IMG/VR virus record: IMGVR_UViG_3300028797_000012 | Length of the DNA stretch: 64,000 nt | Reading direction: 5' to 3' (one strand) | From: an uncultured virus (IMG/VR IMGVR_UViG_3300028797_000012) | Lineage: Duplodnaviria > Heunggongvirae > Uroviricota > Caudoviricetes | Shown: positions 8,395 to 29,526 of the stretch, piece by piece | Layout: each line of letters begins with the position of its first letter | How positions within the stretch are numbered: the stretch's first letter is position 1 | Notes under the pieces: model-generated | Seen by the model: only the letters and a program-made list of their open reading frames with translations | Told to the model about the DNA's origin: nothing | Database searches by the model: none | Program-made: the position numbers and the translations under genes

Positions 8395-8447
8395 GTGCAG
8401 AGTATCCCAGACCACGCGCGCGCAACGGTGGACATTTCCGTAAACGG

Positions 8448-8972: not shown

Positions 8973-9085
8973 ATGTTACTCCTTCCGATCTTCGTGTTAT
9001 CATTTCCATGTACCGAAAAACGTACAGTATTGTAATCTGGCGCGACACCGCGCCGTCAATCATGCCGGCATGCAAGGGGGGCAGC

Positions 9086-9495: not shown

Positions 9496-9496
9496 C

Positions 9497-9697: not shown

Positions 9698-9951
9698 CCC
9701 GGGTACTTCTCGCCCGTTATCTCCTCGTACATCCTGACGTACTCCTTCCCCTCGTCCGACTCCATGAACTCCCTGTCCTTCCTCTCGCCGCGCTCCAGCA
9801 GGAAGTCCATGAACTTCACGAGCAGCAGCGACAGCAGCGCCAGAACCGAGGACACCGCCAGCACCGCGAATATGATGAACGGGATGAACCCGAGGAACTC
9901 TATCCAGCAAGATATGCAGTACGTGAGCGTTATGAAGAAACCGACCGCCAT
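9694..9951 (-). CDS. Small membrane protein
   Basis: Long hydrophobic N-terminal half; AGGAGG RBS. Confidence 0.6.
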   Translation of the reverse strand: MAVGFFITLTYCISCWIEFLGFIPFIIFAVLAVSSVLALLSLLLVKFMDFLLERGERKDREFMESDEGKEYVRMYEEITGEKYPG

Positions 9952-9999
9952 GCTTCCACCTTCCTCCTTGTCATTGCAGATGATACGCCATCTTAGCGG

Positions 10000-11195: not shown

Positions 11196-11204
11196 GGCCT
11201 CTCC

Positions 11205-11495
11205 TTAATCCGTGACCTCGAAGTAGTACCTGATATCGTCGCCCTCCAGGTTGTCCAGGCACCAGTTGCGGACCTTGTAGTACAGCTCGGCGTAAAGGTC
11301 GGACAGCGCGTCTTCGCCGGCATCATGGTGCAGCCAGCACCGCCAGTTCGTGACGAGAGCGAGCTCGGTCACATAGACGACGTCAGACTTCCATTCGCCG
11401 AATGCGCGGTCGAACGTGTCGCGGACGGCGGTTTCGCCGAAACAGTCGGCTATCGTGAAGTCCTGCCAGAAGGTTGTCTTGAATTCATAGGGCAT
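11205..11495 (-). CDS. Phage hypothetical protein
   Basis: TTFWQDFTIADCFG..A..DTF.RAF.EWK...Y.TEL..V.NW; resembles a recurrent phage family (from memory). Confidence 0.8.
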   Translation of the reverse strand: MPYEFKTTFWQDFTIADCFGETAVRDTFDRAFGEWKSDVVYVTELALVTNWRCWLHHDAGEDALSDLYAELYYKVRNWCLDNLEGDDIRYYFEVTD

Positions 11496-11505
11496 GGTTT
11501 CCTCC

Positions 11506-13632
11506 TTATGCCTTCGTCCTCATGTCGTACGTCTCCCCGTAAACCGTCATGCGTTCGAGAGGCTCGCCGCCGTCGCCTGCGTAGGCGAATACGTCATAGC
11601 CGCAATCCCAACACTCGAACGCCATGCCGAACAGGTCGTTCGCGTTCCTCACCTTGGTCGCCATGACGTCGCCGCGCATGAACGGGTTCGGGAGCCATCC
11701 GCATCCCCATATCGGGTCTTTCCCGGTCTTGCGGTGGATGATCTCGAAGGGGTCGCAGTCTTCTTCGTCCGAGCCGCCGTAGTGGTACCCGAGCAGGTAC
11801 CATCCAGTTCCCTTGTCCTCGTACATGTAGAGCAGCTCGCTCAGCGCTTGGAGCATTTGCTCGTGGCAGTCATCGCTTACCCATTCGATACCGCCTACGA
11901 AGCATTCGTTTCCCTGCCAGCTCATCGTTTCCTCCTTAAAGACGGTAGTAGTTCCAGTTTGAGCGGCGCTTGAAGACCGTCACCCAATGGCCGTTCTCGA
12001 AGCGCTCGGACTTCATCGTGCGGCGGATTTGCAAGGTGTCTTGCGCGTTGCAGCACCGCCTGTAGAAATCGAGCGCCTCATGGGCGCTCTCGAACTCCTT
12101 CGCCCAATCGTCGTCGGGGTCGTCGTGCTCCGCGACCACTCTGTACAGGGGTTTCATGACTCGTTCCTCCTTCGCCTTGATGTCCGCATCCTCCGGCAGT
12201 ACGCCCGGACGCGCCGCCATGTCCGCCACCATGAACGCCGACCAGTGGCGGTTCGGGTTCTCATGGACGGCTTGCAGCATTTCGTCAAGCCCCTCGTCGG
12301 TCTTGAGGTACTCGTAGACCGCCTCCTCGGCAGCGAAGGTGGACTCCGCATCGACGAGAATCGTCGTGCTCGTGACGTAATCGACCGTTACTTCGTAGAC
12401 CATGGCTTCCAATCCTCCTTAATCGAGACTTCGTCTGTCAGCAGGGCAGGCACGTTGAACGGGTGGCCGAAGATGATTACCCTGTCATCGCGGAACGCCT
12501 CCACCTTCTCGACCTCGAACCAGAGGCACCACGCCGATGACCGCGCGCTTTCGGCCCAATCGCGGGCCTCCTCGATTTCATCGGCGCGGACTCGCTCGAT
12601 GAGCTGCTCGACCAGCAGAACGGCGTCGTACATGTCGCCTGGCTTCAGGTCGCGGACGGGTTTCCTCATGGCTACCACCTCCACCAGATGCCGCGCTTGG
12701 CCTGCCTGCTGAGCAGTATGTAGCCCTGGCTTCCGAATTCGAAGCGCAGGCTGTCGTAGTCGGCCAGCAAATCGGCCGTCAGGCATTCGACAGCGCCGGA
12801 GCGGACGTCGCTCATCCTCTGCGACAGCTCGGACACCGACATGTCCACCACCCAGGCTTCGCGCAGCCCGTCGCTCCAATCGTCGAAGCAGAGCACGCTT
12901 GCGGTGAAATCGCCGTTGATTCTGAAATACGTTCCCTCCATGGCTACCACTCCTCTTTGTTTGCTTCCAGCTGCTCACGCTTCATGAGCTCCAGCTTGTC
13001 GACGAGCCATCCTTCCAGCTCCCAGCCGACGAACTCGGCAGGCTCGAACTGCCTCACGTAGCTCCTCGCGAGGTCTGCGGACAAGATGAACCGCAGCGGG
13101 CAGGTTCCCGCCCAGACGTAGGGCAGCTCCTCTATCTGGTAGATGTCGCCATCGTCCCAACCGACGTCGAGCATTTGCCTGTAGCCCTCCTCGGTGTCGG
13201 CGAGGTAGATTTTGTGGCACCCGTCGAAGAAGAACTCCTCCGCCTCGAACTCGATTCCGTTGATGGTTCCCTTCATGTTCATCGCTCCTCTCCGTACAGC
13301 GCGTCGGCTGCGATTTGCAACAGGCGCTCGGCTTCCGCCCTGTCCTTCGCGGGGAATTTTGCGAGCACATCCTTGCAGTACAGGCTGGTCGTGTAATACC
13401 GAATGCGTACGATGCAGTTGAACTGGTATCCGCGTTCGAACAGTTCGGCATCCTCGTGGTTGGCCTTGAACGACGTGTCATACGCTTTGAACCATACGTC
13501 GCCGTCAGAGTAGTCAACATAACCGTCTGGACTCTTTAAGTCATGCGGCCAACCTTTCGGCCAGTCGGTTATCGCTTCGAAATCTTCACCATATTCGGTG
13601 TTGTAGAAGTCAAGTTCGTACATGTTCATCAT
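11506..13632 (-). CDS. Six hypothetical genes (11506-11925, 11936-12403, 12388-12669, 12672-12941, 12944-13282, 13279-13632)
   Basis: Acidic ORFs with strong RBSs, tightly packed. Confidence 0.7.
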
Positions 13633-13712
13633 TCCTTCTCGTGTCCCATATTCGCGTTCGCTCGCGCCCGACCGACCTGATGCGCAGCCGTGGCGCGGGC
13701 ACATCCGCATGG

Positions 13713-14291
13713 CTACCAGCTGGCGTGGTAGTGGAACGTCACGTTCCATTCGTCCACCTCGCCCTTCTCGCGCCAGCTAGACCACGTCAGGTCGCCGACG
13801 GAGTGCTGGGTGTACTGCTCGACGTTGTCGAGAATCGCGTCGATGCCCTTCACGGTGATGACGAGCTGGTCGAAGTAGTAGTCGTCGTAGCCCGTGCTGC
13901 CGAAGAAGAAGCCGCTCCGCGTCGGGAGCAGCCTCTCGGCGGTGGACGGGTCTTCGATTACCATGACGCGCTCCTTCACGGTCTCAAGCCTCCCCGTTCC
14001 AGGGTTGACGCGCTGGAACTCAAGCACATCGCCGACCACCAGCTTCGACCCCGCGATGACCTCCTTGCAGGTGTCGCGGAGCTTGATGAGGTCGGGCACG
14101 CTGACATTGCATGTCGAGTAATTGTCGTTGCCGCCCATAAGGTTGTCCACGAACCATCCGTGGATGGCGTTCGCCTTGCGCCAATAGATGGCGTCCCCGT
14201 AGGGCAGGCGCCACATCTCGCCGCCAATCGCCTCAAGAGCCGCCTTGCAGACCTTCTTGCTGTTCGTGCTCAAGTACATATCTAAGCCCAT
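13713..14291 (-). CDS. Widespread conserved phage protein of unknown function
   Basis: MGLDMYL...YWRKANAIHGWF...LLPTRSGFFFGS..YD.YY...YHASW signature. Confidence 0.85.
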   Translation of the reverse strand: MGLDMYLSTNSKKVCKAALEAIGGEMWRLPYGDAIYWRKANAIHGWFVDNLMGGNDNYSTCNVSVPDLIKLRDTCKEVIAGSKLVVGDVLEFQRVNPGTGRLETVKERVMVIEDPSTAERLLPTRSGFFFGSTGYDDYYFDQLVITVKGIDAILDNVEQYTQHSVGDLTWSSWREKGEVDEWNVTFHYHASW

Positions 14292-14295
14292 GGTT

Positions 14296-14680
14296 TCTCC
14301 TCTCGAAATGGTTGGAGCCGCTAAGAAAGGCGGCTCCGTGATTCATGTTCGCGTTTTCCGTTACTCGTACATGGCGTCGTCAACGATGACGTCGATGATT
14401 TCCCATCCCTCCTCGATGCTGCGCTCCTTCAGCGTGCGTTCGAAGCGGTTGCCGAGGATGCGCTCGATGTTCTCGTCGGTCAGCTCGACGCCGTGATGTG
14501 CCATCATGTCGAGCAAGTCCGCGATTTTCCATTCGATTTTGCAGATGGTTTCGTTCGGGTCGTAGCTCCCGTCGTAGATGACCTCGTCTGCATAGACCGC
14601 GTAGGATGCCTTGTACATAGCCTCTCCTCTCGAAATGGTTGGAGCCGCCCCGAAAAGGACGGCTCCGCGTTACATGGCTC
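14296..14680 (-). repeat. Duplicated gene leader: GGAGCCG/CGGCTCC hairpin plus RBS
   Basis: 26 identical nt (tctcctctcgaaatggttggagccgc) at 14296-14321 and 14623-14648. Confidence 0.9.
14361..14618 (-). CDS. Hypothetical protein
   Basis: ORF between the two duplicated leaders. Confidence 0.75.
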   Translation of the reverse strand: MYKASYAVYADEVIYDGSYDPNETICKIEWKIADLLDMMAHHGVELTDENIERILGNRFERTLKERSIEEGWEIIDVIVDDAMYE

Positions 14681-14691
14681 CAGGCGGGTTG

Positions 14692-15405
14692 CTACGCAGG
14701 CATGAACACCGTGCCGCCGCTCACACCCTTGCCCTTCAGCTCGGGGTAGGTCTTCTTGACCTTCTCCACCAGCTCCTTCTCGCTGATGGCCGGCAGCTCC
14801 GACTCCTCGCACAGCTTCTTGTACTGCGAGTAGACCGTCTTGCTGTGCAGGTTCACGAACGACAGGAAGCTCTTGTCCTTCATGAACAGCGCCACGCCGT
14901 CATCGGCGGTGGGCTGGGCTTCGGCGGGCGGCTCCATGGTGGGCGCCGCCGCCATCTTCTCCTGCGGCCTGGCCTTCACGGCGTCCGCCACAGCCATGGC
15001 GAGCAGCTCGATGGCTTCGCCGTTGTCCAGGTTCGGCAGGTAGGTGGACATGCCGAACAGCGCCACGCCGCCGAGCTTGACCGCGCACGCGGAGTTCGGG
15101 ACGCTGTACACTGGGCACGCGGGCGTGCATTCCTCGTTCGAGAACGGGCACATGTTGCTGGGTTTGTCTGCCATGGAATCATCCTCCAAGTCCTTGTATT
15201 CGTCGTCGTCGATTTTCCTGCCCTGCCATTTGAGCCAGCGCTGCGAGACCTCCTCCTCGTTGAAGCCGTCGCAGCGGAAGCGCTTCGTTATCACCTTCCC
15301 GTCCGGCAGGGTGGCGCTGCCCACATAGGTGTTCGTCTTGCCTATGCGCTCAAGCGTCCCGTTGTCGTTTCGGCGGATCACGCCGCCGCGGTTGATGGAA
15401 CCCAT
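14692..15405 (-). CDS. Multi-domain hypothetical protein, possible C-terminal winged helix
   Basis: Cys cluster CPF...C...C; C-terminal VYSQYKKLCEE...ISEKEL resembles D5/primase C-terminal helices. Confidence 0.65.
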   Translation of the reverse strand: MGSINRGGVIRRNDNGTLERIGKTNTYVGSATLPDGKVITKRFRCDGFNEEEVSQRWLKWQGRKIDDDEYKDLEDDSMADKPSNMCPFSNEECTPACPVYSVPNSACAVKLGGVALFGMSTYLPNLDNGEAIELLAMAVADAVKARPQEKMAAAPTMEPPAEAQPTADDGVALFMKDKSFLSFVNLHSKTVYSQYKKLCEESELPAISEKELVEKVKKTYPELKGKGVSGGTVFMPA

Positions 15406-15472
15406 CGGTTACCTCCTTCGTGTTCGTGGGAAATATTGGGGCGCCCGAGAGCGCCCCGCCCTGCATGGCCGC

Positions 15473-15769
15473 CTACGAATCGACCCTGACCAGGTACACA
15501 TGACCCTTCACGTGGAAGGTGCTGAGCGTGGTCTCAAGCGCCAGCTCCTCGATTTTCTTCGCGAGCGCCGACCTTATCGAAGTCGGGGTGCTCTTCGTCA
15601 TGGTGCGCTGGGTGCGCCCGAAGTCCTGCGGTTCGATTTCGACGGCATCGTAGCCGCTGTCCAGGAACCGCCTGATGGCGCTTGCCGCGTGCACGGGCAT
15701 CGTGACGTTGCCGTTGTTGAAGTTGCGGGAACGGATTTCGGATACCTGCTCGAAAGTCATGGGTTTCAT
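15473..15769 (-). CDS. Hypothetical protein
   Basis: AAGGAG RBS. Confidence 0.7.
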   Translation of the reverse strand: MKPMTFEQVSEIRSRNFNNGNVTMPVHAASAIRRFLDSGYDAVEIEPQDFGRTQRTMTKSTPTSIRSALAKKIEELALETTLSTFHVKGHVYLVRVDS

Positions 15770-15833
15770 GCTGTTCTCCTTCTGCTGTTTTGTCGCTAAT
15801 CTGTCGGTGCTTGCTGCTGTTTCGTGCTTCGTC

Positions 15834-16475
15834 TTAGGCTTCCTGCGGCTTCATCCACCACCCCTCTCCGTAATGCTTGCTGCGGCCATGGCGCAATCCC
15901 ATTTCCGCAAGCTCCTCCTCGTGGCCGTCCAGCTCGCCGACCACCCAGATGCACGCGCCTTCCTTGCGCTGGCGCACCAGGACGTTGCCCCACATGGCGG
16001 CAAGCTCGCGCAGGGTGGACATGGTGACCTCGGCGGCGGCTTCGACCGCGGCTTCCTCGGCACGAGCGGCCTCGGCTTCCTCGGTCATCTGCTTCTCGGT
16101 CTCGCTGACGAACACGACGTACTCGCTGCGGCTCATGGAGCGGCCGTTGTCGATGAGCGCCTTCAGCGCGGCGGCCTTGCTCTCGCATACGTGCGGCCTG
16201 GATGCCACAGCGCCGTCGAGCGCCGCCATGACGGGCGTGGACTCCGCGTACTCGATGGCGGCCTTCCTGGTGGCGAACACCATGGCATGCGAGAACGCGC
16301 TGAGCCCTGTCGCCAGGTCATCGACCGTCCACTTGCTGCCCTTGCGGCGTGCGCCGAGCGTCCACTTCTTGCGGGGGGTGGACAGCTCGAAGACGTACCC
16401 CTCGACGCTCACGGCCTTCACGTTCGCGCCGTCGTTGATTACGATGTCGTAGCTCTTCTTCGTCAAAGTAGTCAT
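15834..16475 (-). CDS. Hypothetical protein
   Basis: GAAAGGA RBS; C-terminal CIWVVG...L...G.R...W module. Confidence 0.75.
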   Translation of the reverse strand: MTTLTKKSYDIVINDGANVKAVSVEGYVFELSTPRKKWTLGARRKGSKWTVDDLATGLSAFSHAMVFATRKAAIEYAESTPVMAALDGAVASRPHVCESKAAALKALIDNGRSMSRSEYVVFVSETEKQMTEEAEAARAEEAAVEAAAEVTMSTLRELAAMWGNVLVRQRKEGACIWVVGELDGHEEELAEMGLRHGRSKHYGEGWWMKPQEA

Positions 16476-16498
16476 GCTGGTTCCTTTCGCTAGGCATG

Positions 16499-16527
16499 AA
16501 AAAGGGGAGCCGCTTCATCGACTCCCC
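16499..16527 (-). terminator. Intrinsic terminator-like hairpin
   Basis: Minus strand GGGGAGTCG-ATGAAG-CGGCTCCCC then TTTTT. Confidence 0.65.
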
Positions 16528-16553
16528 AGGTTCCCGATGTGTGTTGCCAGCCG

Positions 16554-16832
16554 TTACCGCGGCATCAGGTCTCCGCTGACGGCTTCTATGACGAACTCCT
16601 CAAGCAGCTCCATGGCCGAGCATTCGCGCTCGGCAACCCTTCGGAGCATCTCGTCGTTGAGCTCGTCCCTCGTGTACGGGCTGCGCTCGACCAGGTAGGC
16701 GTACAGCGACTCGCGCCATCCCTGGGTCGCGCACAGCTTGGCTTCGGCGAGGTACGTCGCATAGGGTTCCTGCAACGTGAACTCGCCCTCCTCGTTCATC
16801 GTCCAGACACCGACCGTGCCCATAGGCATCAC
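16554..16832 (-). CDS. Hypothetical protein
   Basis: AAGGAGG RBS. Confidence 0.7.
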   Translation of the reverse strand: MMPMGTVGVWTMNEEGEFTLQEPYATYLAEAKLCATQGWRESLYAYLVERSPYTRDELNDEMLRRVAERECSAMELLEEFVIEAVSGDLMPR

Positions 16833-16836
16833 CTCC

Positions 16837-17829
16837 TTAGAATTTCGTCATCAACGCCTTCGAAACCGCCTTCTGCTGCTCGTTGGAAGCGTGCAGGGCC
16901 TCGTAGTACGACGGGTCTTCCTCATACCCGAGCTCAAGCGCCTCGCGCTCGGATTCCTCGGCGAGTATGTCGGCGGCCATGGAGTCGGCGCCCTTCTCCG
17001 TGTCGCAGACGGGGTAGGTCAGGGCGCATTCCTCGTTCCACAGGCAGTCGGCGCACGCCGCGTACGGCAGGGCGTCCACGAGGTCTTCGAGCTTCTCGCC
17101 GTAAGCGAGGCCGTACTCGTCGTCATCGTCGTCATCGTCCCATATGCCGTAGGACGCACGCACCGTCGATGCCGTGCGCCATCCGCCCTCGTGCCAGCCC
17201 GTGTCGCTGTACCATATGTCCTTGTACGACGACCAGTTGGTGACCGTGCGCAGGTAGCTCGTGTTGGAGAACTTCACGCCCTCCTTGTCGTAGAAGTGGC
17301 CGACCGTCTTGATTTCGCCCGAGCCGTCCATGATGGCGAGCTTTGACCCGCATGCGTCCTCAAGCAGCTCGGTTGCGTAGTCGTTGTGCATGAAGTTCGG
17401 GTTCATCTTCGCCAGCGGCGTCATGAAGCATGCGATGAAGTCCATGGAGTCCGACCACTCGGCTCCCGTGCTCCTTCCCGTGATGACGCCGTTGTGCGCC
17501 ACGCCGAAGCGCGCGGAGACCTCCGTCGCCCTCATGTCCTCCTTCGAGTCCGTGAGCGGGAACGGGTGGCAGCAGGCGGGCTTCACGCCGCCGTGAGTCG
17601 CAATCCTGAAGTGCATGACGATGGACACGTCGTCCTGCATCCACGTCGGGATTTCGTCATCCAACGCGTCCAGGAAATCGCCGAACTTCATGAACCCCTT
17701 GCGGATTTTCACGGTCTTGCCGTCGGCGTACATGAACCCCGCGCCGTCGGGGTTGGCGGTGAAGCACGCCCTCAGGGTCTCGGTGTCGGGCATCTTGGTG
17801 TCTGCGGGTTTGGCTACGATGATGCACAT
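16837..17829 (-). CDS. Class II (Ntn) glutamine amidotransferase
   Basis: N-terminal M-C-II nucleophile, NPDGAG, HFRIATHG, CHPF, AHNG, SDS; acidic C-terminal tail. Confidence 0.88.
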   Translation of the reverse strand: MCIIVAKPADTKMPDTETLRACFTANPDGAGFMYADGKTVKIRKGFMKFGDFLDALDDEIPTWMQDDVSIVMHFRIATHGGVKPACCHPFPLTDSKEDMRATEVSARFGVAHNGVITGRSTGAEWSDSMDFIACFMTPLAKMNPNFMHNDYATELLEDACGSKLAIMDGSGEIKTVGHFYDKEGVKFSNTSYLRTVTNWSSYKDIWYSDTGWHEGGWRTASTVRASYGIWDDDDDDDEYGLAYGEKLEDLVDALPYAACADCLWNEECALTYPVCDTEKGADSMAADILAEESEREALELGYEEDPSYYEALHASNEQQKAVSKALMTKF

Positions 17830-17882
17830 GTTGCATTCCTTTCGTTCGTGTTCTCTGGTTTCGTCGGGGAGGTGGACAGCCG

Positions 17883-19511
17883 CTAGAGCAGCTCTTTGTT
17901 CTCCAGGTAGTCGCGCAGGTACTCGCGGGACTTCGGCTCGTCGCATGCGGACATGACGTCCTTCATGAGCTGGTACCATTCGACCGTCTCGACGTAGTGG
18001 GCGCTGTGCATCTTGGCGACGTGGCACATGCCGTTCACCAGGGCGAGGCAGGCGAAGTAGGTGGACATGTTCAGCGTCCCGCGGAAGATGCGGAACTCGA
18101 ACGTGTTCTGGTGCTGGAAGTTGAGCGCCTGCTCGTGGCGGCGTTCGTACTTCATGTCGCGAGCCTTGTCCAGCGTGCGGCTGGGGGAGTCGGGCTCGCC
18201 CTGCTCGTCGGGGCCGTACACCCCGCTCGTGGTGTACTCGCACCAGCGGTTCGAGCGGCGGCGCGAGAACTTCGTGAGCTCGTTCTCGAACCGTTGCAGC
18301 AGCCTCATCAGCTTGTAGCCGCCGACGTCCTGGAGGTCTACGCTCTTCCCGAAGAACAGGCGGTTCACATGGACGTGCAGGCCGCAGCGTCCGCCGTCAT
18401 GGCTCCGGAAGCTGTTCGCGAGCGCCGCGCCGCGAATCTTCGTGTAGACGTCGGCGAGCTCGTTGGCGTGATAGGCCAGCGTGCACGGCATGGACGTGAT
18501 TTCGACGCCGTTCTCAAGCGACGAGTCGCGGGTCATCCAGAAGTGCTCCTTGAACCCCTCGATATCGGCGAGCTGGACTACGTAGGCTTCGCGGTCATAG
18601 CCGCCGTCGGTCTCCAGCTCGACGCCAAGGAGCGGGGACTTCGCGTAATCGCCGAAGAACTTGATGAGCGGCGTCCAGCCGTAATCGTGCAGCTCGCCGT
18701 TCGCGTTTCGGCGCCGTATGCAGGACGGGCAGAAATAGGAATCGTCTTCATCGTCGTATTCCATGACCGACTCGTCCCAGCACGTGCCGCACCCCTCGCA
18801 TTCGCGGGTTTCGTCCTCCCAGCACGACTCGCACCAGAGGAGGTTGCCCTCCTCCGTGCGCACCACATACGTGCGGTTGTTCGGCACCCATTCGTCGCAG
18901 TGGGCGCAGCGCGTGAAGTCGTGGCTCGCACAACTGTCGCCACAGAAGAAATGGCCGTCGAGCTCGATGCTGTAGTAGCTGCCCGTGGATACCCAATCGC
19001 CGCACCACTCGCAGCATTCGTAGCCAGCTTCGTGGGCGCATTCCGCCGAGCAGAAGAGCTGGCCGCCCACGGTGAGGACACTGTCGTCATCATGGCTGTG
19101 CGAATCGAACCGCTCGCCGCACTGGGGGCAGGTGTGGACGCCGGCATCGTTGGCGCACGTGGTCGAGCAGAACAGGCGACCTTCGTGCTCGACGGAGTAC
19201 GGGTCGTCAGGGTCGACCACGGATCGGCAGCACTCGCATAACCGCACGCCCTGGGCTTCGGCCGCCGCGTTCATGGCGTCTTCCAGGAGGCCGGCTTCAC
19301 GGGACGAGTAGATGTTCGATGATATCCTCCGCATCTGTTCGAGGTCGCCGTCCATTACTTCGATGGCCGCGAGCAGGACGGCCTCGCGTGCGATCGCGTA
19401 CTCATTCCGCGTCAGGTTGCCCTCCAGGCGGTCCGCGTAGAGCCGACGGCAGCCCTCGATGTACTCCTCATACGGGGTGAGCTGGACGCTGTTCGTGTTC
19501 GTGTTCGGCAT
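17883..19511 (-). CDS. Putative amidoligase (COOH-NH2 ligase) with N-terminal zinc-ribbon repeats
   Basis: GVELE, DSSL..GVEITS.P, CGLHVHV, ALN, TFEFRIFRGT; about five tandem CxxC...CxxC units. Confidence 0.88.
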   Translation of the reverse strand: MPNTNTNSVQLTPYEEYIEGCRRLYADRLEGNLTRNEYAIAREAVLLAAIEVMDGDLEQMRRISSNIYSSREAGLLEDAMNAAAEAQGVRLCECCRSVVDPDDPYSVEHEGRLFCSTTCANDAGVHTCPQCGERFDSHSHDDDSVLTVGGQLFCSAECAHEAGYECCEWCGDWVSTGSYYSIELDGHFFCGDSCASHDFTRCAHCDEWVPNNRTYVVRTEEGNLLWCESCWEDETRECEGCGTCWDESVMEYDDEDDSYFCPSCIRRRNANGELHDYGWTPLIKFFGDYAKSPLLGVELETDGGYDREAYVVQLADIEGFKEHFWMTRDSSLENGVEITSMPCTLAYHANELADVYTKIRGAALANSFRSHDGGRCGLHVHVNRLFFGKSVDLQDVGGYKLMRLLQRFENELTKFSRRRSNRWCEYTTSGVYGPDEQGEPDSPSRTLDKARDMKYERRHEQALNFQHQNTFEFRIFRGTLNMSTYFACLALVNGMCHVAKMHSAHYVETVEWYQLMKDVMSACDEPKSREYLRDYLENKELL

Positions 19512-19605
19512 GGTACAATTCCTTTCGTTCGTGAGCTGCCGAAGTTTCCTAGGCAGCGGCAGCTCGACTTACATGGCAACGCCCCACTGCGGGGCGTTGT
19601 TGCTG

Positions 19606-19640
19606 AAAAGAAAAAGCCCCGTTCATCGGGGCGTTTTTTG
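19606..19640. terminator. Bidirectional terminator-like hairpin
   Basis: A-tract, GCCCC-GTTCATC-GGGGC, T-tract; near copy at 20037-20060. Confidence 0.7.
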
Positions 19641-19657
19641 TGATTCGTAGATTTGGG

Positions 19658-21521
19658 CTAACAGCCCGTCCAGTCTTTGTGGGCGGCGTGGTAATTCGCG
19701 TTGAGCCGTTTGTATTCGGCACGAGCTTCCTCGTCGTTCATGCTCCGCCGCGCTGGGGAGTTGAGGAACGCTTCCAGTTCGGCATCCGCCTTCATGAACG
19801 CCATCAGCGCACGGTGCCGTCCTTCTGCGAATCGGACGGTCACAAATGCGATGGGTTTGCTGTTCCTCTCAGTCCATTCGAGCGCCATGTCGAAGCAATC
19901 GCTTTCGAGTCCGAACACGGCGTTGTATCCGCACGTCCCCTCGTAAACGATTTCGCCCGTGTCGTAATCGTTAACCACGACCATGACCTCGGACATGACC
20001 AAGTCTCGCAACTTCATGGTTTCCTCCTTTCAAAGGAAAAGCCCTGTTCATCGGGGCGTTTCATGGTTCGCGTTTCGCGCCGTGCGGGCTGGGTGGACTC
20101 CCTTCTAAGCGAGTTCCAGCCATTCCTCATAGGCTGCCTTGCTCCTGTTCCTGATTTCGAGGTACGCCGCCGCGAAGATTTTCGTGTGGTCATGCGTCCA
20201 TTGGCCGGATTCGCGCAGGGACACCTCCGCGATTTCGAATTCGTTCCAGTCGAACTTCGAGCCGTCGAGCACGCCCCACCAGTAGGCGCGCTCGTCATCG
20301 CGGTATCCGTCCAGCTCATAGGCCACCAGCTCGGCGGTCATGCGCTTCAGGATGGCGCGTTCGCGCTTCCTGTAGCGGTGCTTCGTGTCGGCCAGCCATT
20401 CGTGCGAATGGCAGACGTAGCGGCGCGTCCTCGGGTTGATGAGGTCGTATTCGTCGCCGCCCTTGAACTTCGCGTAGTGCTTCATGGTTCGTCCCCTTTC
20501 CTAGACCTGGGTTACCTTGCCGTCCACGTATGCCATCTGCGCCCTCATGGTTTCCTGGGCGATGACCGCGGCGACGTCTTCGAGCTTCGATTCGGCGATG
20601 GCCTGGTAGTGAGTGAGGTTCTTTTTCTCAGAACCAGTTCGTCTCATGTATCCGTGCTTGTCGGTTCTTCCGTAGATGACCAGCATCTTCATGGTTACCT
20701 CCAAGGGTCGATGTTGATGGTGTCTTCGAGGTCGCATACGCGACCATCCATGGCGAGTTCGAGGTCTTCGCCCTCGATTCCAGCGGCGAGCAGGGCGCAC
20801 ATGATTTCGCGCTGCATGGTCGCTGGAAGCATCCAGATGTACCGGAGCATGGTTCCTCCTTAGTACGGGTGCCCGCAGTTCACGAGCACATCCCAAATCA
20901 GGGGCAACAGAAAGGCCGCCACGTAGGCGGCCGCTAACATCAGGTTCGTCTTCATCGTCGGCACCTCAGCAGATGCCGTACTTGATGGACTTCCACGCGC
21001 CGCTTCGCGCCTTCACGCTGATGCGATACGTGCGGCCACGCTTCATGGTCACCGTCCAGACGCGTGGACGGTGCTTCGTGACTCTGACCTGCTTTTTCGT
21101 TTTCAGGTCGGTCACCTTCAGCTTCGCCTTCGCGTCGCCGCAGCAGGTGATTGTCGCGACATAGGACTTCGCGCCGCACGGGTTCGCGTCGTCCACATAG
21201 GGGAGCGACACGTTCGCGGCCTGCATGTTCGTTGCTTGCAGGGCTTCGGCCTTCGGTGTTCCTGCGAGCGTCAGGGCGATTACGGCTGCGACACATGCAG
21301 CCAGTACGATGATTCGCGTTTTCATTTCGTACCTACCTTTCGTTCTCGTTCGCGTACATCAGGCGAAACGCCTGCTCAAGCCCATCGTCGGGCTCGACTT
21401 CGAACCAGCGGGGGGCGGGTTCGAAAGCTTCGAAGTTCGTTCCGTAGGCGGCGATTTCGCTTTGCGCCGTCTCGTTTGCGACTTCAACCATCGCCAACAG
21501 TTCGTCAATCGTCTCGTACAT
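19658..21521 (-). CDS. Seven small genes (19658-20017, 20105-20485, 20501-20692, 20695-20850, 20860-20955, 20966-21325 secreted, 21333-21521)
   Basis: Strong RBSs; 20966-21325 has a signal peptide; 20860-20955 is a 31-aa hydrophobic peptide. Confidence 0.7.
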
Positions 21522-21569
21522 GGTTTTTCCTTTCTCATCAGGGGTTTTCCTTCGTGGCGAGTTGCCACT

Positions 21570-22870
21570 TACATGACCTCACGCGTCTTCACCCCGCATG
21601 AGGTCAGGCACTAGCAACTCGCTACGCGTTGCATAGCGAGCGTGGGTTTACATGACCACGCATGACCTGTCACACGGTTCGCGACGCCGTTTCCGGAAAA
21701 CCGCTGCTCGCATATAGCACAGCCCACGTGGTATCGACGCAGGACATACTGCACCCGTAGTATTCGGGCATGGGTTGTGCCTTTGTCTGTCTTGACAAGC
21801 CGTGCGGCTCGTATTGCCAAAAGGTTTTGCGCGAACATAAGGCGCTCGTATCGCGTCGCTCGCGTCGTGGGTTATCGTTCGCCGCTCGTATCGCGGCGCT
21901 CGTTTCGTGGCTCAGTGACCGCCGCTTGTATCGCGGCGCTCAGCGCTCAGCGCTCGCCGCTTGTATCACGGCTCAGCGCTCGCCGCTCGTATCGCGGCGC
22001 TCAGGGATTGACCGCCGCTCGTATCGCGGCGCTCAGGGATTGACCGCCGCTCGTATCGCGGCGCTCAGGTTGCACGGCTTTTCTAGTATCGATTGATTCA
22101 AGGCGTATGGAGTAGGGTTATCCGTTGACAGGATTTGAAGCACCACAGCTAAACGGCTTTCGCGGTTTCTATTCGCTCAAACGCCGAAACCGTAGCGCGA
22201 CGCTCGCTCGTATCGCTTGCGTCGTTTCGAGCTTTGCGGCAAGTTAGTCGTATCACTTGCGCTATGCATTGCTTGCTAGCTATTCGCCGCCGTCGGTCAA
22301 AGCGTAACCGTTCTAAGCCACGTTATGACGTGGCTTTCACTTAACGCGCATTCTTGCAAGCGCTAGCAGCTTTTCGCCGCTATGCGGTCATTGTTTCGGG
22401 TATGGACTGAGCAGCCCTTAGAACGGCTTAGAATGGCCTGTTTAACCCGATTCAACGAGCTACGCCAAACGCTTGCAACGTCTGCGTTGTGTCTCCGTGA
22501 ACTGTGGATTATGGAACAACCTAGAAAGCTTTCGTATCCACTCGCAAAGCGTTGTATAGGCTTTGCGGGTTTCGGGTTCAATCGCGGCTAGTATCGCCCT
22601 TGCGATTGTGCCCACGTCCCTACTTTATCGGGGGTGACCAGCTTGCACCAGCGCGACCGTCTCACGCTGTACACGCTATAGAATCGCGTGCATTCGGTTG
22701 TTTCGTTGTGACCGTCAAGCTTGACGGCTTGCCCAAATTAGAGCCAACGAGGATGTTATAGCTCAGGCATATTTGGGCGTTTGTAGGCTCGTATTGCCCA
22801 CGTCTAGAGACTCACAGCGGGTATGAGTCCCTAGCGTATGCAATGACGGCTTAGAGACGCTTAGAGCCGC
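21570..22870. ncRNA. Candidate large structured non-coding RNA with ~15 same-loop hairpins
   Basis: No credible ORF; dense inverted repeats; loop TNGTAT(C/T/A) closed by different stems. Confidence 0.6.
21981..22069. repeat. 32-bp tandem repeat (~2.8 copies), each unit a hairpin
   Basis: cgccgctcgtatcgcggcgctcagggattgac at 21981 and 22013, partial at 22045. Confidence 0.95.
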
Positions 22871-22877
22871 TCAGAAG

Positions 22878-24278
<1,401 letters not shown>

Positions 24279-24348
24279 TTCTGTTCACCCTTTCGGTTGT
24301 TCGCGCTGTGGCTTGCGCTGTGGTTTATCGGGAGTGCCACGGTGAGAC

Positions 24349-24482
24349 AAGGTAGCACAATGTCTAAAGGCGTTTAGAATTCTGGGGCTTATCGTGTGGT
24401 CTAAGTGCGTTTAGACTTTTGGGGCTATCTGGGTTTATGGTCATTCTGTGGTTTAGATGTGAATTGCTAAACGGGTTTAGAC
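24349..24482. promoter_or_regulatory. Extended -10 promoter (minus strand) with three palindromic operators
   Basis: Minus TGcTACCTT at ~24349-24357; CTAA-N6-TTAG palindromes at 24363-24378, 24399-24416, 24467-24480. Confidence 0.65.
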
Positions 24483-24619
24483 GTGATAAACTGCGATTTA
24501 TGCGGGTTTTTCAGGCAAAACAGGCGTTTTCGAGGGGGTGAACGGTTCTCAAACGAGATATATCAATTGCAAGTTATTCAATCAACGATGATAAATCGCT
24601 TATTGTTAGGGGTTTTGGT

Positions 24620-24856
24620 ATGGGTTTTTGGGCTGTGCTTTATCAGGCGGCCAAACGTTCAAAGGTTCGAACAACCGATATAGGGCCAAAATTGGGCTTG
24701 AGCAGGGGTTTTGTATCTGCTTGCAAGACTCAAAACGTAGAGCCGAAAATATACAACGCTGCTCGATTGTTGAGCGTTTGCGGTTTCACGCTTTGCGCCA
24801 TTCCTAGCGAGAAAGTGCCTGATGATGCGCTTGTAATTGACTTCGAACGAGAATAG
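24620..24856 (+). CDS. Small HTH transcriptional regulator
   Basis: TTDIGPKLGLSRGFVS...EPKIYNAARLLSVCG; divergent from the minus block. Confidence 0.7.
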   Translation: MGFWAVLYQAAKRSKVRTTDIGPKLGLSRGFVSACKTQNVEPKIYNAARLLSVCGFTLCAIPSEKVPDDALVIDFERE

Positions 24857-24954
24857 ATTTATTTTCACGAAAGATAGTGTGACGGATCCAAGGTTTCGTA
24901 ATAACCCCTGATATTCGTTATTCTCGTTCGTGATAGCGTCGCCCTGGTGCGCAC

Positions 24955-25660
24955 TAGCGAGCGGCGAGCGAGGGGGCGAGGGGGCGAGCAGCGGGGCGAG
25001 CGAGCGGGGGCGAGCAGCGAGCAGCGGGGCGAGCGCAAGCGGCGAGCGAGCGAGCGGCGAGCAGCGAGCAGCGGGGGCGAAAGCGGGGGCGAGCGAGCGG
25101 GGGCGAGCTGTACCGAAAACGGCACAGCGAGCGAGCGCAAGCGGCGAGCAGTGGCGAGCGTGTAGCGAGGGGGCGAGCGTGCGGCGAGCGCGGGGCAAAG
25201 TGCACCAAAAGCGGGACTGTACCGAAAGCAGTACACCAAAGCGAGCGAGCGGGGGGCGAGGGTGCGAGCAGCGAGCGAGTGCTAGCGAGCAGCGAGCAGC
25301 GGGGGCGAGCGAATACCAGACAGACACGACACGCAAAGCGGCGCGAATAGTGGACGTGTGCAAGTAGTGAGCGAGTGCGAGCAGCGAGCGAGCGCAAGCA
25401 GTGGGCGAGTGAGTGCGAGCGAGCGAGGGGGCGAGCAGCGAGCGAGGGGGGCGAGGGGCGGCGAGCGAGCAGGGGCGAGCGCGAGCGAGGGGGCGAGCGA
25501 GGGGGGCGAGCGAGGGCGAGCGAGGGGGGCGAGCGAGGGCGAGCGAGGGCGAGCGAGCGCGAGCGACGAGCAGTGAGCGAGCGAGTGAGCGAGCGAGGGC
25601 GAGCGAGGGCGAGACTGTACCGAAAAGCGGACACGAGACGAGGGCGAGCGTGACAAAAGC
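24955..25660 (+). repeat. Low-complexity, almost T-free GCGAGC/GGGGCGAG tract
   Basis: Dozens of GCGAGC copies; the overlapping ORFs are Ala/Arg/Ser artefacts. Confidence 0.9.
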
Positions 25661-25860
25661 GTGACAAAAGCGGAAATCCGCGGATGACCTGGGGAAACGA
25701 TGCAAAACCCCTGATGATCCCCGAAAAACGCTCTGACCTGGGGTGATACGCCCCCCGGGTCGCCGTAACACCGTTGCGTCTGGGGGACCGGCGCGGGGAG
25801 TCAAAAAAACGCGCCGCCGCGAAAATAAATTGCACTTTTTCGGCCCGCTCCCCTCCCCTT
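25650..25860. other. Probable cos/packaging region
   Basis: Non-coding, just upstream of HNH-terS; CCCCCCGGG...GGGGGACCGGCGCGGGG; GTGACAAAAGC x2; TGACCTGGGG x2. Confidence 0.5.
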
Positions 25861-25882
25861 TTCGCAAATTTTGTATCTGTTT

Positions 25883-25897
25883 TGGTACAATATTCCA
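25883..25897 (+). promoter_or_regulatory. Extended -10 late promoter, probably giving a leaderless mRNA
   Basis: TGgTACAAT, 6 nt, then ATG 25898; no SD sequence. Confidence 0.6.
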
Positions 25898-26227
25898 ATG
25901 GCTAGGGACTTCGCGCGGGATTTCTACCACGGGAGGCCGTGGAGGACGGTCCGGGACTCGTACATGCAGGAGGGTTTCGGGCTTTGCGAGAGGTGCCTGA
26001 GCTTGGGGAAATACACCAAGGCGGAGATCGTGCACCACAAGGTGCACCTGAGCCCGCAGAACATCAACGACCCGAAGATAACGCTTGACAAGGCGAACCT
26101 TGAGAGGGTTTGCAGGGATTGCCACGCGTACTACCACCCGGAGGTGTACGGGTCCGCTCCCGCGCGCGAGCCGAGGTGGGCTTTCGACGACGATGGGAAC
26201 GTGATACCGATTGAAGACTTCAACTAA
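25898..26227 (+). CDS. Terminase-associated HNH endonuclease (HK97 gp74-like)
   Basis: FY...W...R...GLCERC...VHH...NL...CRDCH...H next to terS. Confidence 0.88.
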   Translation: MARDFARDFYHGRPWRTVRDSYMQEGFGLCERCLSLGKYTKAEIVHHKVHLSPQNINDPKITLDKANLERVCRDCHAYYHPEVYGSAPAREPRWAFDDDGNVIPIEDFN

Positions 26228-26976: not shown

Positions 26977-27177
26977 ATGAAGTTTCGTGACTGCTCGATT
27001 TGCGGGTCGCACGTCGAGCCTACGTACCTAGACGTCAAGGGCCGGAAGACGCTCTACGGCGCGGAATGCGACGAGGGCCACTCCATCCCCGCCGTGTTCG
27101 GCACGAAGAACCGCGCCGCGCAGGCGTGGAACGAGTGCCAGGGGTTCGTGGAGAGGTACACCGAGGAGATGGACTGA
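26977..27177 (+). CDS. Lar-like zinc-finger protein
   Basis: CSICGS...AECDEGH...AAQAWN. Confidence 0.6.
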   Translation: MKFRDCSICGSHVEPTYLDVKGRKTLYGAECDEGHSIPAVFGTKNRAAQAWNECQGFVERYTEEMD

Positions 27178-28157
27178 TGGGTTCCGTGCTCTTCGTCTCA
27201 CAGAACAGGCTCGGCCGCTGCGAGAACCTTACCGCCGTGTGGAACGCGTACCGAGGCGAGAAGGACTTCGCACTCGGCAACGACGCCATGCGGTCAGCCG
27301 AGCGCGACGGGTACTCCGTCGTCGTCTGCGACTACCTACCGAAGCTCATCGAGGGCAAATCGCGCGTGAAGTCGGTCAACATCGGGCACGGCATCACGGG
27401 CGACAAGCTCTACGCCGCCGACGAGAAGCACAAGCCATGGTACGACCAGGCGGCATCTGACCAGATAGACTACGCGATATCAACCTCCAAGGCAGGTATT
27501 GGCATCGTGGCGAACCAGTTCCGAATCCCCCGCGCGCGCGTGTTGCCATACGGGATGCCGAGGACCGACTCGTGCTTCCGTGACGGCTTCAGGTACAAGT
27601 CGCTCGGCGGGCGCCCGGTCGACCGCATCTACCTGTACGCACCGACCTACCGCAACGGCGACGGACGCCTCCCGACTATCGACTGGACGCTTCTCGACTC
27701 GCTCCTCGAAGACGGCGAGGTTTTTGTCGTGAAGAGGCATTACTTCACCAAGGGGCCGCTGATGGGGGAGCGCGGGCACGGCTGGTACAGGCACGTGATA
27801 GAGGTGTCGCCCGATGAGCCGTCCGAAGCGTACCTGCGCTCGTGCTCCGTGCTGCTCACCGACTACAGCTCGATATTGTTCGACGCATACCTGTTCGGCA
27901 AGCCGAGCGTGCTAGCGGTGGACGACAAGGACGTTTACCTGAGAAAACGCGGCATGTACTACGACTACCCGACGTTCTACAGCTCGCGGTGGATATCGGT
28001 CGAAGGCAACGAGGAGCGCCTCGTGCTGGCGCTTCGCGAAGCGGCAGCGACGGGCATGCGCGCCGTCGAGAGGCGGTGCGTCGCAACCGTGGCCGGCGCA
28101 TGCGACGGGCACAGCACGGAACGCGTATGCGACCTGATAAGCAGGCTGGCTGACTAA
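27177..28157 (+). CDS. CDP-glycerol glycerophosphotransferase (TagB/TagF family)
   Basis: GHG, GMPRTD, YLYAPTYR, KRH, LLTDYSSILFD..LFGKP, DGHSTER motifs. Confidence 0.85.
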   Translation: MGSVLFVSQNRLGRCENLTAVWNAYRGEKDFALGNDAMRSAERDGYSVVVCDYLPKLIEGKSRVKSVNIGHGITGDKLYAADEKHKPWYDQAASDQIDYAISTSKAGIGIVANQFRIPRARVLPYGMPRTDSCFRDGFRYKSLGGRPVDRIYLYAPTYRNGDGRLPTIDWTLLDSLLEDGEVFVVKRHYFTKGPLMGERGHGWYRHVIEVSPDEPSEAYLRSCSVLLTDYSSILFDAYLFGKPSVLAVDDKDVYLRKRGMYYDYPTFYSSRWISVEGNEERLVLALREAAATGMRAVERRCVATVAGACDGHSTERVCDLISRLAD

Positions 28158-28169
28158 GGAGGCACCACC

Positions 28170-28901
28170 ATGAAGCACGCGCTCTACTCTGGCACGAAGA
28201 ACATCTACGGCGACATGCAGACGGCGGCGAAGTCGCTCATCGCGAACTCGGACGTCGACAAGGTCTGGATGCTGACCGAGGGCGACTACGACTGTTGGCT
28301 GCCGGATTTCTGCGAGGTCGTCGACGTGAGCGGCCAGGAGTTCTTCCCGAAGACGTCGCCGAGCATGAGGACGTCGTACTCCTACCTGGCGCTCATGCGC
28401 GCGGCCCTCGCGCTCATGCCGGAGCTCGCCGACGTGGACCGCATCCTGTCGCTTGACGTGGACACCATCTGCGTGCGCAGCGTCTCGGACGTATGGGACA
28501 TGCCGATAGACAACTGCTACTTCTCCGCGGCCCAGGAGACGGCGACGAAAATCAAGAACATGCTCTACTGCAACACGGGCGTGGCCCTCTACAACCTTGA
28601 GAAGCTCCGCGACGGGAAGGCAGAGGAGGTCATCTACGCGCTCAACGAGCGGCTGTACCCGAACATCGAGCAGGACGTCTTCAGCTTCCTTTGCTGCGGC
28701 CACATCCATGACATGCCGAGTGAGTACAACTGCACGCGCTTCACCAACCCGACGAACATAATCCGCATCGAGCACTTCGCCGGGTACAAGACCGAGGACT
28801 GGCGGAAGCGCTCGATCGTCGACGAGTACCGCAAGATGAGCTGGGACAGCGTCCTTGAGCTGCACGAACGGGCCATAAAGAAGGCTCACAATGGCAAATA
28901 G
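28170..28901 (+). CDS. Glycosyltransferase family 8
   Basis: RILSLDVD (DxD), YCNTGVALYNL, EQDVF, YN, IEHFAG. Confidence 0.88.
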   Translation: MKHALYSGTKNIYGDMQTAAKSLIANSDVDKVWMLTEGDYDCWLPDFCEVVDVSGQEFFPKTSPSMRTSYSYLALMRAALALMPELADVDRILSLDVDTICVRSVSDVWDMPIDNCYFSAAQETATKIKNMLYCNTGVALYNLEKLRDGKAEEVIYALNERLYPNIEQDVFSFLCCGHIHDMPSEYNCTRFTNPTNIIRIEHFAGYKTEDWRKRSIVDEYRKMSWDSVLELHERAIKKAHNGK

Positions 28902-29526
28902 CCTGATGGTGAGCGTGCCGACGTTCGACAGGTCGATCAAGGCGGCGTGCGCCGAGGCGATAGGCAACGCGATCGAGCACGCCGAGGTCAACGCCCCGTG
29001 CGAGCTCGAAAGGGTGGTCCACCGCTACGTGAGCGGCTACGACGTCGCACGCGCGCGCAACGAGATGGCGCGGGCTGCGCTCGACGACCAGGTGGACCTC
29101 CTCTGGATGGTGGACTCCGACGTCGTCGTCCCGCCCGACGCGCTCACGCTGCTGCTGTCAGCGCAGCTCGACGTCTGCATGGGCTTCTACGTCCGCGGCA
29201 CAGACGACGGCGACCTCACGAGCTTCGTGAGGCCCGGCACGGTCGGGAACGACGACTGCTACAGGGCTTCGGAGCTGCGTGAGCTGCGCGATAAGGGGGT
29301 CCACCTCGCCGGGGCCAAGCGTGGCGGCATGGGCTGCGCGCTCATAAGCACGAGCGTGTTCAGGCGGCTCAAGCGCCCGTGGTTCGTGTTCCGGGATTAC
29401 GCCGACGGCAGCGGGCTCGGGGAAGATTACCACTTCTGCGCAGCATGCGCGGAACGCGGGATAAAGCTCTACGTTGACACGCGCGTGGGGTGCGGGCACA
29501 TACACGACAGGATATTGGAGGCATGA
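28891..29526 (+). CDS. GT-A (GT2-like) glycosyltransferase
   Basis: ARN, WMVDSD (DxD), GMGCALI, PWF, GEDYHFC, VD..V.CGH. Confidence 0.85.
   Translation: MANSLMVSVPTFDRSIKAACAEAIGNAIEHAEVNAPCELERVVHRYVSGYDVARARNEMARAALDDQVDLLWMVDSDVVVPPDALTLLLSAQLDVCMGFYVRGTDDGDLTSFVRPGTVGNDDCYRASELRELRDKGVHLAGAKRGGMGCALISTSVFRRLKRPWFVFRDYADGSGLGEDYHFCAACAERGIKLYVDTRVGCGHIHDRILEA

Follow-up and report, generated by a model that had tools for sequence, protein, structure and literature searches.

Cells and engineers alike obtain multivalent docking on RNA from arrays of hairpins that carry one constant loop; none has been described in the early operon of a phage. The loops of the CsrB/Rsm RNAs carry GGA and bind CsrA/RsmA, and phage lambda has one hairpin per operon, with a GNRA-like pentaloop and an accompanying boxA. 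Phages also carry mimics of ToxI. Phage-borne tandem hairpins are known from the TIGR arrays, which lie by a partner gene and are transcribed and processed; in the accessible part of their description, the stems are 'variable but consistently palindromic' and the loops hold two 8-12-nt variable spacers that act as guides, with box C/D-like motifs on either side (PMC12045711). Here, we analyze a non-coding stretch of 1.3 kb in 64,000 nucleotides of DNA (the window) from the uncultured virus IMGVR_UViG_3300028797_000012, part of a tailed rumen phage of ~60% GC. This stretch carries about 14 hairpins whose stems differ while their 7-base tip is constant, and a preliminary description had put it forward as a candidate new phage RNA system.

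Results

A constant loop on stems selected for pairing

Every hairpin coordinate and stem of the preliminary description was found in the sequence (Table 1). The long-range helix arms that it proposed all exist as well, but the CCGTTCTAAG arm had been placed one base off and lies at 22309-22318. The loop word, TNGTATH on the plus strand and NAUACNA on the sense strand (the window minus strand), is present in 17/17 copies; the sense-strand loop, 5'-NAUACNA-3', is most often GAUACGA. In most copies, the constant part comprises this 7-nt loop and two closing pairs (GC...GC), and outward of these the stems diverge (cccg, ggc, ggcgc, cgccgc, cgacgc, gcaagt, gcaaagc, caatcgc and gtaggc). Spacings in the array are 51, 37, 40, 40, 35, 26, 32, 32 and 33 bp. 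A weak point of the pattern is that two copies have no stem (21729 and 22532) and one has 2 pairs only (22082).

The plus strand of the 64-kb window contains 32 TNGTATH words, 17 of them within 21570-22870. At least three directly flanking Watson-Crick pairs accompany 11 of the 32; ten of these lie in the region and the other at 19923, and none of the 26 such words on the minus strand has a stem of at least 3 pairs. We compared the region with 2000 dinucleotide shuffles of 21570-22870 and found 17 motifs against a shuffle mean of 0.95 (maximum 5), and 10 stemmed motifs against a mean of 0.013 (maximum 1). The reverse complement of the region has 0 motifs and 0 stemmed motifs. Thus, the enrichment of the hairpins holds both over shuffled sequence and over the rest of the window.

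Are the stems maintained by selection? Six CGCCGC/GCGGCG copies were collapsed to one because they are recent tandem duplicates (32- and 40-nt units), which left 12 independent copies with 8 flanking positions each (96). Watson-Crick pairs form at 44/96 of these positions, where ~24 are expected, and 0/20000 resamples reach 44. When the 14 paralogous hairpins of this one array were aligned without gaps, 72.1% of cells were paired, compared to 48.6% in shuffles, and the covariation score was 0.543, compared to 0.166 in shuffles (0/500 as high) and 0.07-0.22 in slid-partner controls. In the alignment, 8/8 base-pair positions change on both sides. The preliminary description took a constant loop on changing but still paired stems as a sign of selection on single-stranded structure. 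Selection on pairing is supported by both the pair count and the covariation, and a constant loop with covarying stems indicates that the element is read in a folded, single-stranded form.

The array follows the first gene of an early operon

The minus-strand gene block of the window extends from ~8000 to 24278 and is bordered by a divergent early control region (24279-24900, 38-53% GC), the AT-richest part of 21-26 kb when profiled at 100-nt resolution. As described before, the array stands directly behind the first gene of this block, which encodes the protein P0001. The region is non-coding by the tests run; two of its small open reading frames (ORFs; 21611-21838 and 22363-22581, minus strand) were scanned and matched no PHROG family. 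No minus-strand terminator-like site was found inside the array region, or anywhere from the first-gene stop to the ribosome-binding site (RBS) of the next gene. Downstream terminators, also announced in the preliminary description, are present as three strong terminator-like hairpins with U tracts (20932-20914, 19632-19616 and 16527-16504). By position, and by position only, the array is thus preceded by the first gene and followed by three terminator-like sites of that strand.

The fold of the region is more stable than that of shuffled sequence, mostly on the minus strand. At 22180-22880, z was -5.2 on the minus and -3.1 on the plus strand; in the hairpin-dense part (21740-22270), z was -3.1 on the minus strand (1/100 shuffles as low) and -0.05 on the plus strand (44/100 as low). 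Coding controls ranged from -1.8 to +1.1. Raw folding energies are equal on both strands, and the asymmetry in z arises because the plus strand is G+T-rich in composition.

P0001 is a candidate partner of the array by its position only. It is an orphan, largely disordered, with a lysine-rich segment and no recognizable fold: the sequence combines PEPE linkers with a KPSKPAKA-type basic low-complexity segment rich in lysine, alanine and proline. No family was found for P0001 in Pfam, PHROG, PADLOC or NCBIfam, nor anything in the ESM Atlas, and no PDB sequence matched it better than E = 0.46. Pfam and PHROG also gave no N homologue or arginine-rich motif in the protein. A single 99%-identical relative was found in 5.8 billion clusters, and a single one again among 1.84 billion representatives read exhaustively by HMMER; P0001 has no match in viral contigs and is absent from five related records. 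Its single-sequence AlphaFold (AF2) model is unusable (pLDDT 41). A weak local similarity to the first-gene protein of a related phage (L227, see below; E = 0.006 over 21 residues) was too weak and was not used.

The array is flanked by 10-nt tandem units, GCTTAGAR / GCTCAGAA (22417-22436 and 22846-22877), with related words at 23699-23981. On the plus strand, the (CCTGAG)n repeats that code for the PEPE linkers of P0001 appear as the related word GCTCAGG.

A place behind the first early gene could also suit a signal that acts when the DNA enters the cell. In the accessible part of a report on phage T5, the injection stop region is untranslated, rich in repeats and palindromes, and lies behind the gene expressed first, at the DNA end that is first to enter; it is marked by 8 DnaA boxes (bioRxiv 10.1101/866236). 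The ends of independent contigs from relatives fall at 25251-25800, and this might be the site of a genome end ~3 kb from the array; this end is putative, and the contigs break beside a low-complexity (GCGAGC)n tract that would break assemblies anyway. Moreover, DnaA boxes are not enriched here and T5 has nothing that resembles constant-loop hairpins, so we regard a T5-like injection pause or early-entry signal as very improbable. The tract in question (24930-25640) is 711 nt long, strongly purine-rich on the plus strand and nearly T-free (A 162, C 162, G 353, T 34). It contains 51 of the 123 plus-strand GCGAGC-type words of the window (none is on the minus strand), 15 copies of AGCGG (the Chi sequence of Bacillus subtilis) and the only G-quadruplex-type motif of the window (25489-25529). 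Next to it lie the starts or ends of three independent contigs from relatives (25251, ~25450 and 25800). The tract may mark a genome end or simply break assemblies.

Other genes of the window agree with a tailed phage: an HNH protein, the small and large terminase, portal, capsid and tape measure proteins, a 2540-aa tail-fibre protein, a holin, a GH25 endolysin, ThyX and a tRNA-Ser. An unusual location is taken by three transferase genes (27000-29526; Glyphos_transf, GT8 and GT2-like), of glycosyl- or glycerophosphotransferase type, which separate the small terminase gene from the large one. The host is probably Gram-positive. The stretch was present in DNA runs of four studies labelled bovine gut metagenome, and a 73,557-nt contig carries an identical copy of one window protein. 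In the early operon, a 542-aa protein (17883-19511) has an amidoligase_2 domain (PF12224, E = 1e-7; phrog_16683) and is 41% identical to its counterpart in L227. The genes at 21333-21521, 20966-21325 and 20501-20896 matched nothing in Pfam, PADLOC or NCBIfam. The 78-aa divergent ORF in the control region looks like a helix-turn-helix regulator by eye; Pfam gave no match for it.

Table 1. Hairpins, repeats and neighboring features of the array (window coordinates unless a contig is named).
Feature	Position	Strand	Remark
Hairpin cccg/TAGTATT/cggg	21754-21768	-	sense loop AAUACUA
Hairpin ggc/TCGTATT/gcc	21806-21818	-	sense loop AAUACGA
Hairpin ggcgc/TCGTATC/gcgtc	21841-21857	-	one G.T on plus strand
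Hairpin cgccgc/TCGTATC/gcggcg	21880-21898	-	tandem family copy 1
Hairpin cgccgc/TTGTATC/gcggcg	21920-21938	-	copy 2; absent in L154
Hairpin gccgc/TTGTATC/acggc	21956-21972	-	closing pair C.A on plus, U.G on minus; absent in L154
Hairpin cgccgc/TCGTATC/gcggcg	21981-21999	-	copy 4; absent in L154
Hairpin cgccgc/TCGTATC/gcggcg	22013-22031	-	copy 5; 32-nt unit; outer TGA/TCA pairs
Hairpin cgccgc/TCGTATC/gcggcg	22045-22063	-	copy 6
Weak hairpin tc/TAGTATC/ga	22082-22092	-	2 pairs only
Hairpin cgacgc-tc-gc/TCGTATC/gc-tt-gcgtcg	22198-22224	-	2x2 internal loop
Hairpin gcaagt/tagTCGTATC/acttgc	22239-22260	-	10-nt loop
Hairpin gcaaagc/gTTGTATAg/gctttgc	22544-22566	-	extends to 10 pairs, one T.G on plus strand
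Hairpin caatcgc-ggc/TAGTATC/gcc-ctt-gcgattg	22579-22608	-	outer 7-bp stem, 3-nt bulge
Hairpin gtaggc/TCGTATT/gcccac	22783-22801	-	A.C on plus strand = G.U on minus strand
Stemless motif copy TGGTATC	21729-21735	-	
Stemless motif copy TCGTATC	22532-22538	-	
Long-range helix CCGTTCTAAG / CTTAGAACGG	22309-22436	-	encloses palindrome AGCCACGT..ACGTGGCT
Tandem 10-nt CTTAGAA units	22417-22436		within long-range helix element
Three 10-nt units GCTTAGAGAC / GCTTAGAGCC / GCTCAGAAGC	22846-22877	-	directly behind first-gene stop
Non-coding stretch	21570-22877	-	from stop of first early gene to next gene; sense = window minus strand
First early-operon gene, 466-aa orphan P0001	22878-24278	-	array directly behind
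Next gene after array, 62 aa	21333-21521	-	own RBS AAAGGA; weak homologue in L226
First terminator-like hairpin with T tract	20914-20932	-	gene gap downstream of array
Second internal terminator-like site	19616-19632	-	gene gap
Third internal terminator-like site	16504-16527	-	gene gap
Four GTTTAGA words	24372-24481	+	divergent promoter region; likely operators
Small divergent ORF, 78 aa	24620-24856	+	conserved in L226 and L227
Own non-coding stretches of relatives	L226 3545-4597; L227 4081-4709		0.6-1.0 kb, within first 1-2 kb of early operon

The array is confined to near-identical strains

At gathering thresholds, the only Rfam match in the whole window is a tRNA at 63363, and at E up to 10 the part from 21300 to 25900 gave only gntR-DTE, inside a protein gene and at 20.3 bits compared to a gathering threshold of 63.6. 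The array, which the preliminary description had not recognized as a known family, thus matches no Rfam family, including ROOL, GOLLD, ToxI and CsrB. We found no match to it by blastn against 50,697 phage records, and viral contigs contain no exact 19-mer of it. A hairpin covariance model (R1), run at E up to 10 over 158 kb of the window and related loci, returned 16 hits, 14 of which were its training hairpins in the array. A literature search found nothing comparable to constant-loop hairpin arrays in phages, which is not proof that none is in print. Among the resources searched, the array therefore appears to match no described element.

The same phage was also reached by pattern searches. 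A stricter pattern found 98 stretches in metagenome contigs, 3 of them from the same phage (L154, L131 and L221); the others inspected were unrelated tandem repeats, mostly coding by eye. In genome contigs it found 65 stretches, none of which resembled the window. A loose gapped pattern gave 119 stretches in viral contigs, with one match each, and only L012 stood out, an unrelated RNA-virus-like contig. L012 has six aagc-TCGTATC-gctt repeats with the same 7-nt loop in a 5' untranslated region (~2990-3290); it is AT-rich, and its long ORF is picorna-like by eye. This likeness is probably a coincidence, as the search pattern forced most of the match. A further contig, L212, carries three 25-nt repeats, CCGC-TCGTATC-GCGG-TCTAAGCC, at 300-365 in the gap between two ORFs that, by eye, resemble orf2 and the transposase gene of an IS66-type element; these repeats share the loop word and have a TCTAAG word like that of the window. 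We also considered and rejected a tRNA-like or T-arm mimic (by eye, positions 33 and 37 and the closing pair are unsuited), a mimic of CRISPR or anti-CRISPR repeats (the copies have varying stems and are spaced by 5-13 nt), and ANTAR, PP7 and MS2 operators and HUH nick sites, resemblances that differ in loop length or sequence.

The only strains in which we found the array are near-identical ones: L131 and L221 (99% identity) and L154 (95% overall). L154 is nearly identical across the array but lacks a 93-nt block that corresponds to three hairpin units, so copy number is free to change; its region otherwise differs by a few substitutions. Contigs from four DNA runs (X3, X5, X6 and X7) add only changes at 22110-22114 and no covariation; gaps in the cover of X5-X7 were left out of the interpretation.

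Two more distant phages, L226 and L227, were reached through a 119-aa early protein, and they share with the window several early genes and the small divergent ORF (32-39% identity, at the same divergent position). In each, the interval from the control region to the conserved early genes holds a near-orphan first gene and a long non-coding stretch, both peculiar to that phage. These stretches have no nucleotide similarity to the array and no Rfam match. The L227 stretch has a well-defined sense fold (z -4.9, compared to -1.9 antisense), and in L226 both strands of the second half are structured (z -5.2 and -7.5). Relatives thus carry unrelated, at least partly structured non-coding stretches at the same operon position. 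The L227 stretch also contains repeated GGGTACCC and GGGATAWGTACCC words. Other routes to relatives ended early: the contigs of TerL relatives are too short to reach the array position, the 542-aa protein gave nothing in viral contigs, and the 119-aa family was not found in genome contigs.

One contig is ~92% identical over 21300-21525, including the 62-aa gene, and diverges just behind 21525, which suggests that the first gene and the array form an exchangeable module. In addition, short contigs of three runs match just the 36 nt at 21589-21624, with 6 differences and other flanks. These matches and the break at 21525 both look like traces of mosaic exchange at the borders of the module.

Could such a lineage-specific array be without a dedicated function, as a repeat expansion that evolves fast, or as copies of a small mobile palindrome, tolerated in a non-essential gap? 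Its restriction to near-identical strains, its absence from relatives and the change of copy number by unit deletion all fit this idea. It is nevertheless quite unlikely, because at least 10 copies with different stems keep both loop and pairing, which slippage of one unit cannot yield. The motif is also not dispersed elsewhere in the window (14/16 hits of the covariance model fall in the array), the searches of metagenome and genome collections showed no such repeat family, and in the strain with 95% overall identity nothing but the unit deletion and a few substitutions distinguishes the region.

Alternatively, the repeats could work as DNA, as iterons of a replication origin or another multi-site DNA-binding locus (centromere-like or regulatory). 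A sequence-specific protein would then read GCTCGTATCGC, and the palindromic flanks would aid local melting or extrusion. The copies are direct repeats in the same orientation with 26-51 bp spacing, including tandem 32- and 40-bp units, their number depends on the strain (L154), and the array adjoins the divergent early/late control region at the cumulative GC-skew minimum. The last point has little weight because the minimum coincides with the switch of gene strand. The position-conserved but sequence-unrelated stretches of the relatives have repeats of their own, as phage-specific origins would. In lambda, the iterons of ori are themselves short inverted repeats, and the origins of lactococcal phages are non-coding and rich in repeats, which we also count in favor of this view. 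Several features are hard to reconcile with it: (i) a dimer bound to inverted arms would conserve the arms and let the center vary, the reverse of what we observed; (ii) no AT-rich unwinding element lies in or next to the array, where GC is >=48% per 100 nt; (iii) DnaA boxes are not enriched, with 3 in the window, one of them (with 1 mismatch) in the array, compared to 4.8 expected by chance; (iv) protein-family scans recognized no replication initiator nearby; and (v) the spacings have no helical phase. We therefore consider a DNA-level array somewhat unlikely, but a serious rival all the same.

Discussion

How is an array read whose hairpins all point one way, are selected for pairing and lie at this position in the operon? 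We favor, with a probability of about 0.4, an action as RNA: the array would be part of the sense strand (window minus) of the early transcript and form a multivalent NAUACNA docking platform for a loop-specific factor, most plausibly in antitermination, or else as a decoy. Three observations lead to this reading: the array lies within a transcription unit, the bias is toward the sense strand, and the relatives keep structured stretches at the corresponding position. The 1.3-kb stretch would be transcribed within the early minus-strand operon, and the transcript would fold into a chain of short hairpins with an identical 7-nt loop and differing stems. One loop-specific factor, perhaps P0001, the disordered and lysine-rich protein encoded just upstream, or else a protein of the host, would dock multivalently on the loops and be loaded co-transcriptionally on nascent early RNA or polymerase. 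The loaded factor might then carry transcription and expression through the long untranslated stretch and the three terminators, similar to N at nut. As a second option, the loops may titrate a host RNA-binding defense or regulatory protein.

Several observations weigh against an RNA platform. (i) One boxB-like site suffices in known antitermination systems, which leaves 14 copies unaccounted for. (ii) No RNA-binding domain was detectable in P0001 by Pfam or PDB sequence search. (iii) L226 and L227 lack the motif (no hits of the covariance model); in the L227 stretch, 3/3 ATAC words lie in hairpin loops (GATACGTA, ATACAAA and ATACCTC), yet 35/500 shuffles match this, so the pattern is a hint only. 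(iv) Variation of copy number between strains, as in L154, is equally typical of DNA-binding repeat arrays. (v) Three stems are just 3 bp long, and the 3-bp hairpin at 21806, folded alone, has -1.5 kcal/mol as DNA. (vi) The excess stability of the minus strand persists with DNA energy parameters (z -2.9 compared to +0.2), which argues against plus-strand RNA and leaves minus-strand RNA and single-stranded DNA unseparated. (vii) The test of G.U versus A.C favors the minus strand only weakly: flanks other than Watson-Crick in the 12 independent copies comprise 14 A.C and 10 G.T, compared to a null of 9.7 and 13.9 (one-sided P = 0.067), and single hairpins conflict, with 21841 and 22544 favoring the plus strand and 21956 and 22783 the minus strand. 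The mixed strand evidence reported earlier is thus confirmed.

The DNA-parameter result and the single orientation of all copies are also what would be expected of single-stranded or extruded DNA hairpins, which could serve as priming sites, as targets of an HUH-type nicking enzyme or as N4-like hairpin promoters. A constant loop on variable stems is indeed the signature of DNA enzymes that read hairpins. N4 promoters have a 5-7-bp stem and a 3-nt loop, unlike the 7-nt loops here. The window encodes no giant virion RNA polymerase, its only giant protein being the 2540-aa one with tail-fibre repeats, and no Rep, HUH or primase family was found among its early genes. Stems of 3 bp would not extrude from duplex DNA, as the low energy of the one folded indicates, and 14 copies without genes between them suit neither promoters nor nick sites. 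Such DNA signals are hence rather improbable.

A bolder version of the RNA platform, which we judge unlikely, is a counter-defense role: an early phage RNA whose ~14 identical loops soak up or mislead an RNA-reading immune or translation factor of the host from the moment the first DNA is transcribed, encoded in a hypervariable slot of first gene plus structured RNA that differs in each relative. In that case, the array might be seen as a natural counterpart of engineered multi-hairpin tags. The loop center is UAC on the sense strand, a tyrosine codon, and GUA on the other strand; GUA is the anticodon of tRNA-Tyr, at positions 34-36 of a 7-nt loop. As pure speculation, the hairpins could engage this tRNA, or else an enzyme by which its anticodon loop is attacked.

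Should the array prove to be an RNA platform, it would point to a new loop-specific binding protein, possibly the adjoining disordered orphan, and to a possible new form of early-expression control or protection in phages of Gram-positive rumen bacteria. Different structured stretches at one place suggest a fast-evolving functional slot. If it is an origin, it would be an unusual one, read via hairpin tips instead of whole iterons.

Copies dispersed across intergenic regions, as with REP or MITE repeats, were not found: over 158 kb, 14/16 R1 hits are the array itself, and pattern hits elsewhere are unrelated, mostly coding repeats by eye. Iteron origins also have same-orientation repeats at 20-50 bp spacing in non-coding DNA near an early control region, and they likewise differ between related phages and vary in copy number. 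However, iterons keep their whole sequence beside an AT-rich element and an initiator gene, whereas the array keeps only the 7-nt center and two closing pairs, its arms covary, and searches for an AT-rich element and an initiator were both negative.

ToxI, the antitoxin of type III systems, also has tandem 32-40-nt structured units, in a non-coding RNA. ToxI units are near-identical and lie directly upstream of a ToxN-family gene, whereas the array copies are mostly dispersed and have different stems; no ToxN/AbiE-type protein was found nearby (Pfam, PADLOC and NCBIfam), nor an Rfam match to ToxI. TIGR-Tas systems, as far as the accessible text of their description goes, share stems that are variable yet palindromic, whereas the array has a constant 7-mer loop and no spacer (PMC12045711). 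A Nop-domain (Tas) protein was not detected, P0001 and its neighbors having no Pfam match and P0001 no PDB sequence match better than E = 0.46.

In lambda, a loop-specific hairpin (boxB) also follows the first gene (nutR after cro) ahead of terminators, and the first-gene product is small or disordered, and basic; P0001 is largely disordered with its lysine-rich segment. The array differs by its ~14 hairpins with 7-nt loops, and no N-family protein was found. HK022 put is a protein-free variant of this system, and Rfam gave no put-like match here. CsrB/CsrC and RsmX/Y/Z are single RNAs with many short hairpins that share one loop word, bind one protein multivalently and vary in copy number among relatives; the array has the many hairpins, the constant loop and the varying copy number, and would be a similar RNA if transcribed. 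In contrast to them, the array has NAUACNA loops, GGA in none of 17 copies and no Rfam Csr/Rsm match, and it spans 1.3 kb within a phage operon rather than being a stand-alone small RNA with its own terminator. By analogy, the array may be most like the Csr/Rsm sponge RNAs, or a multiplied nut site, in its working.

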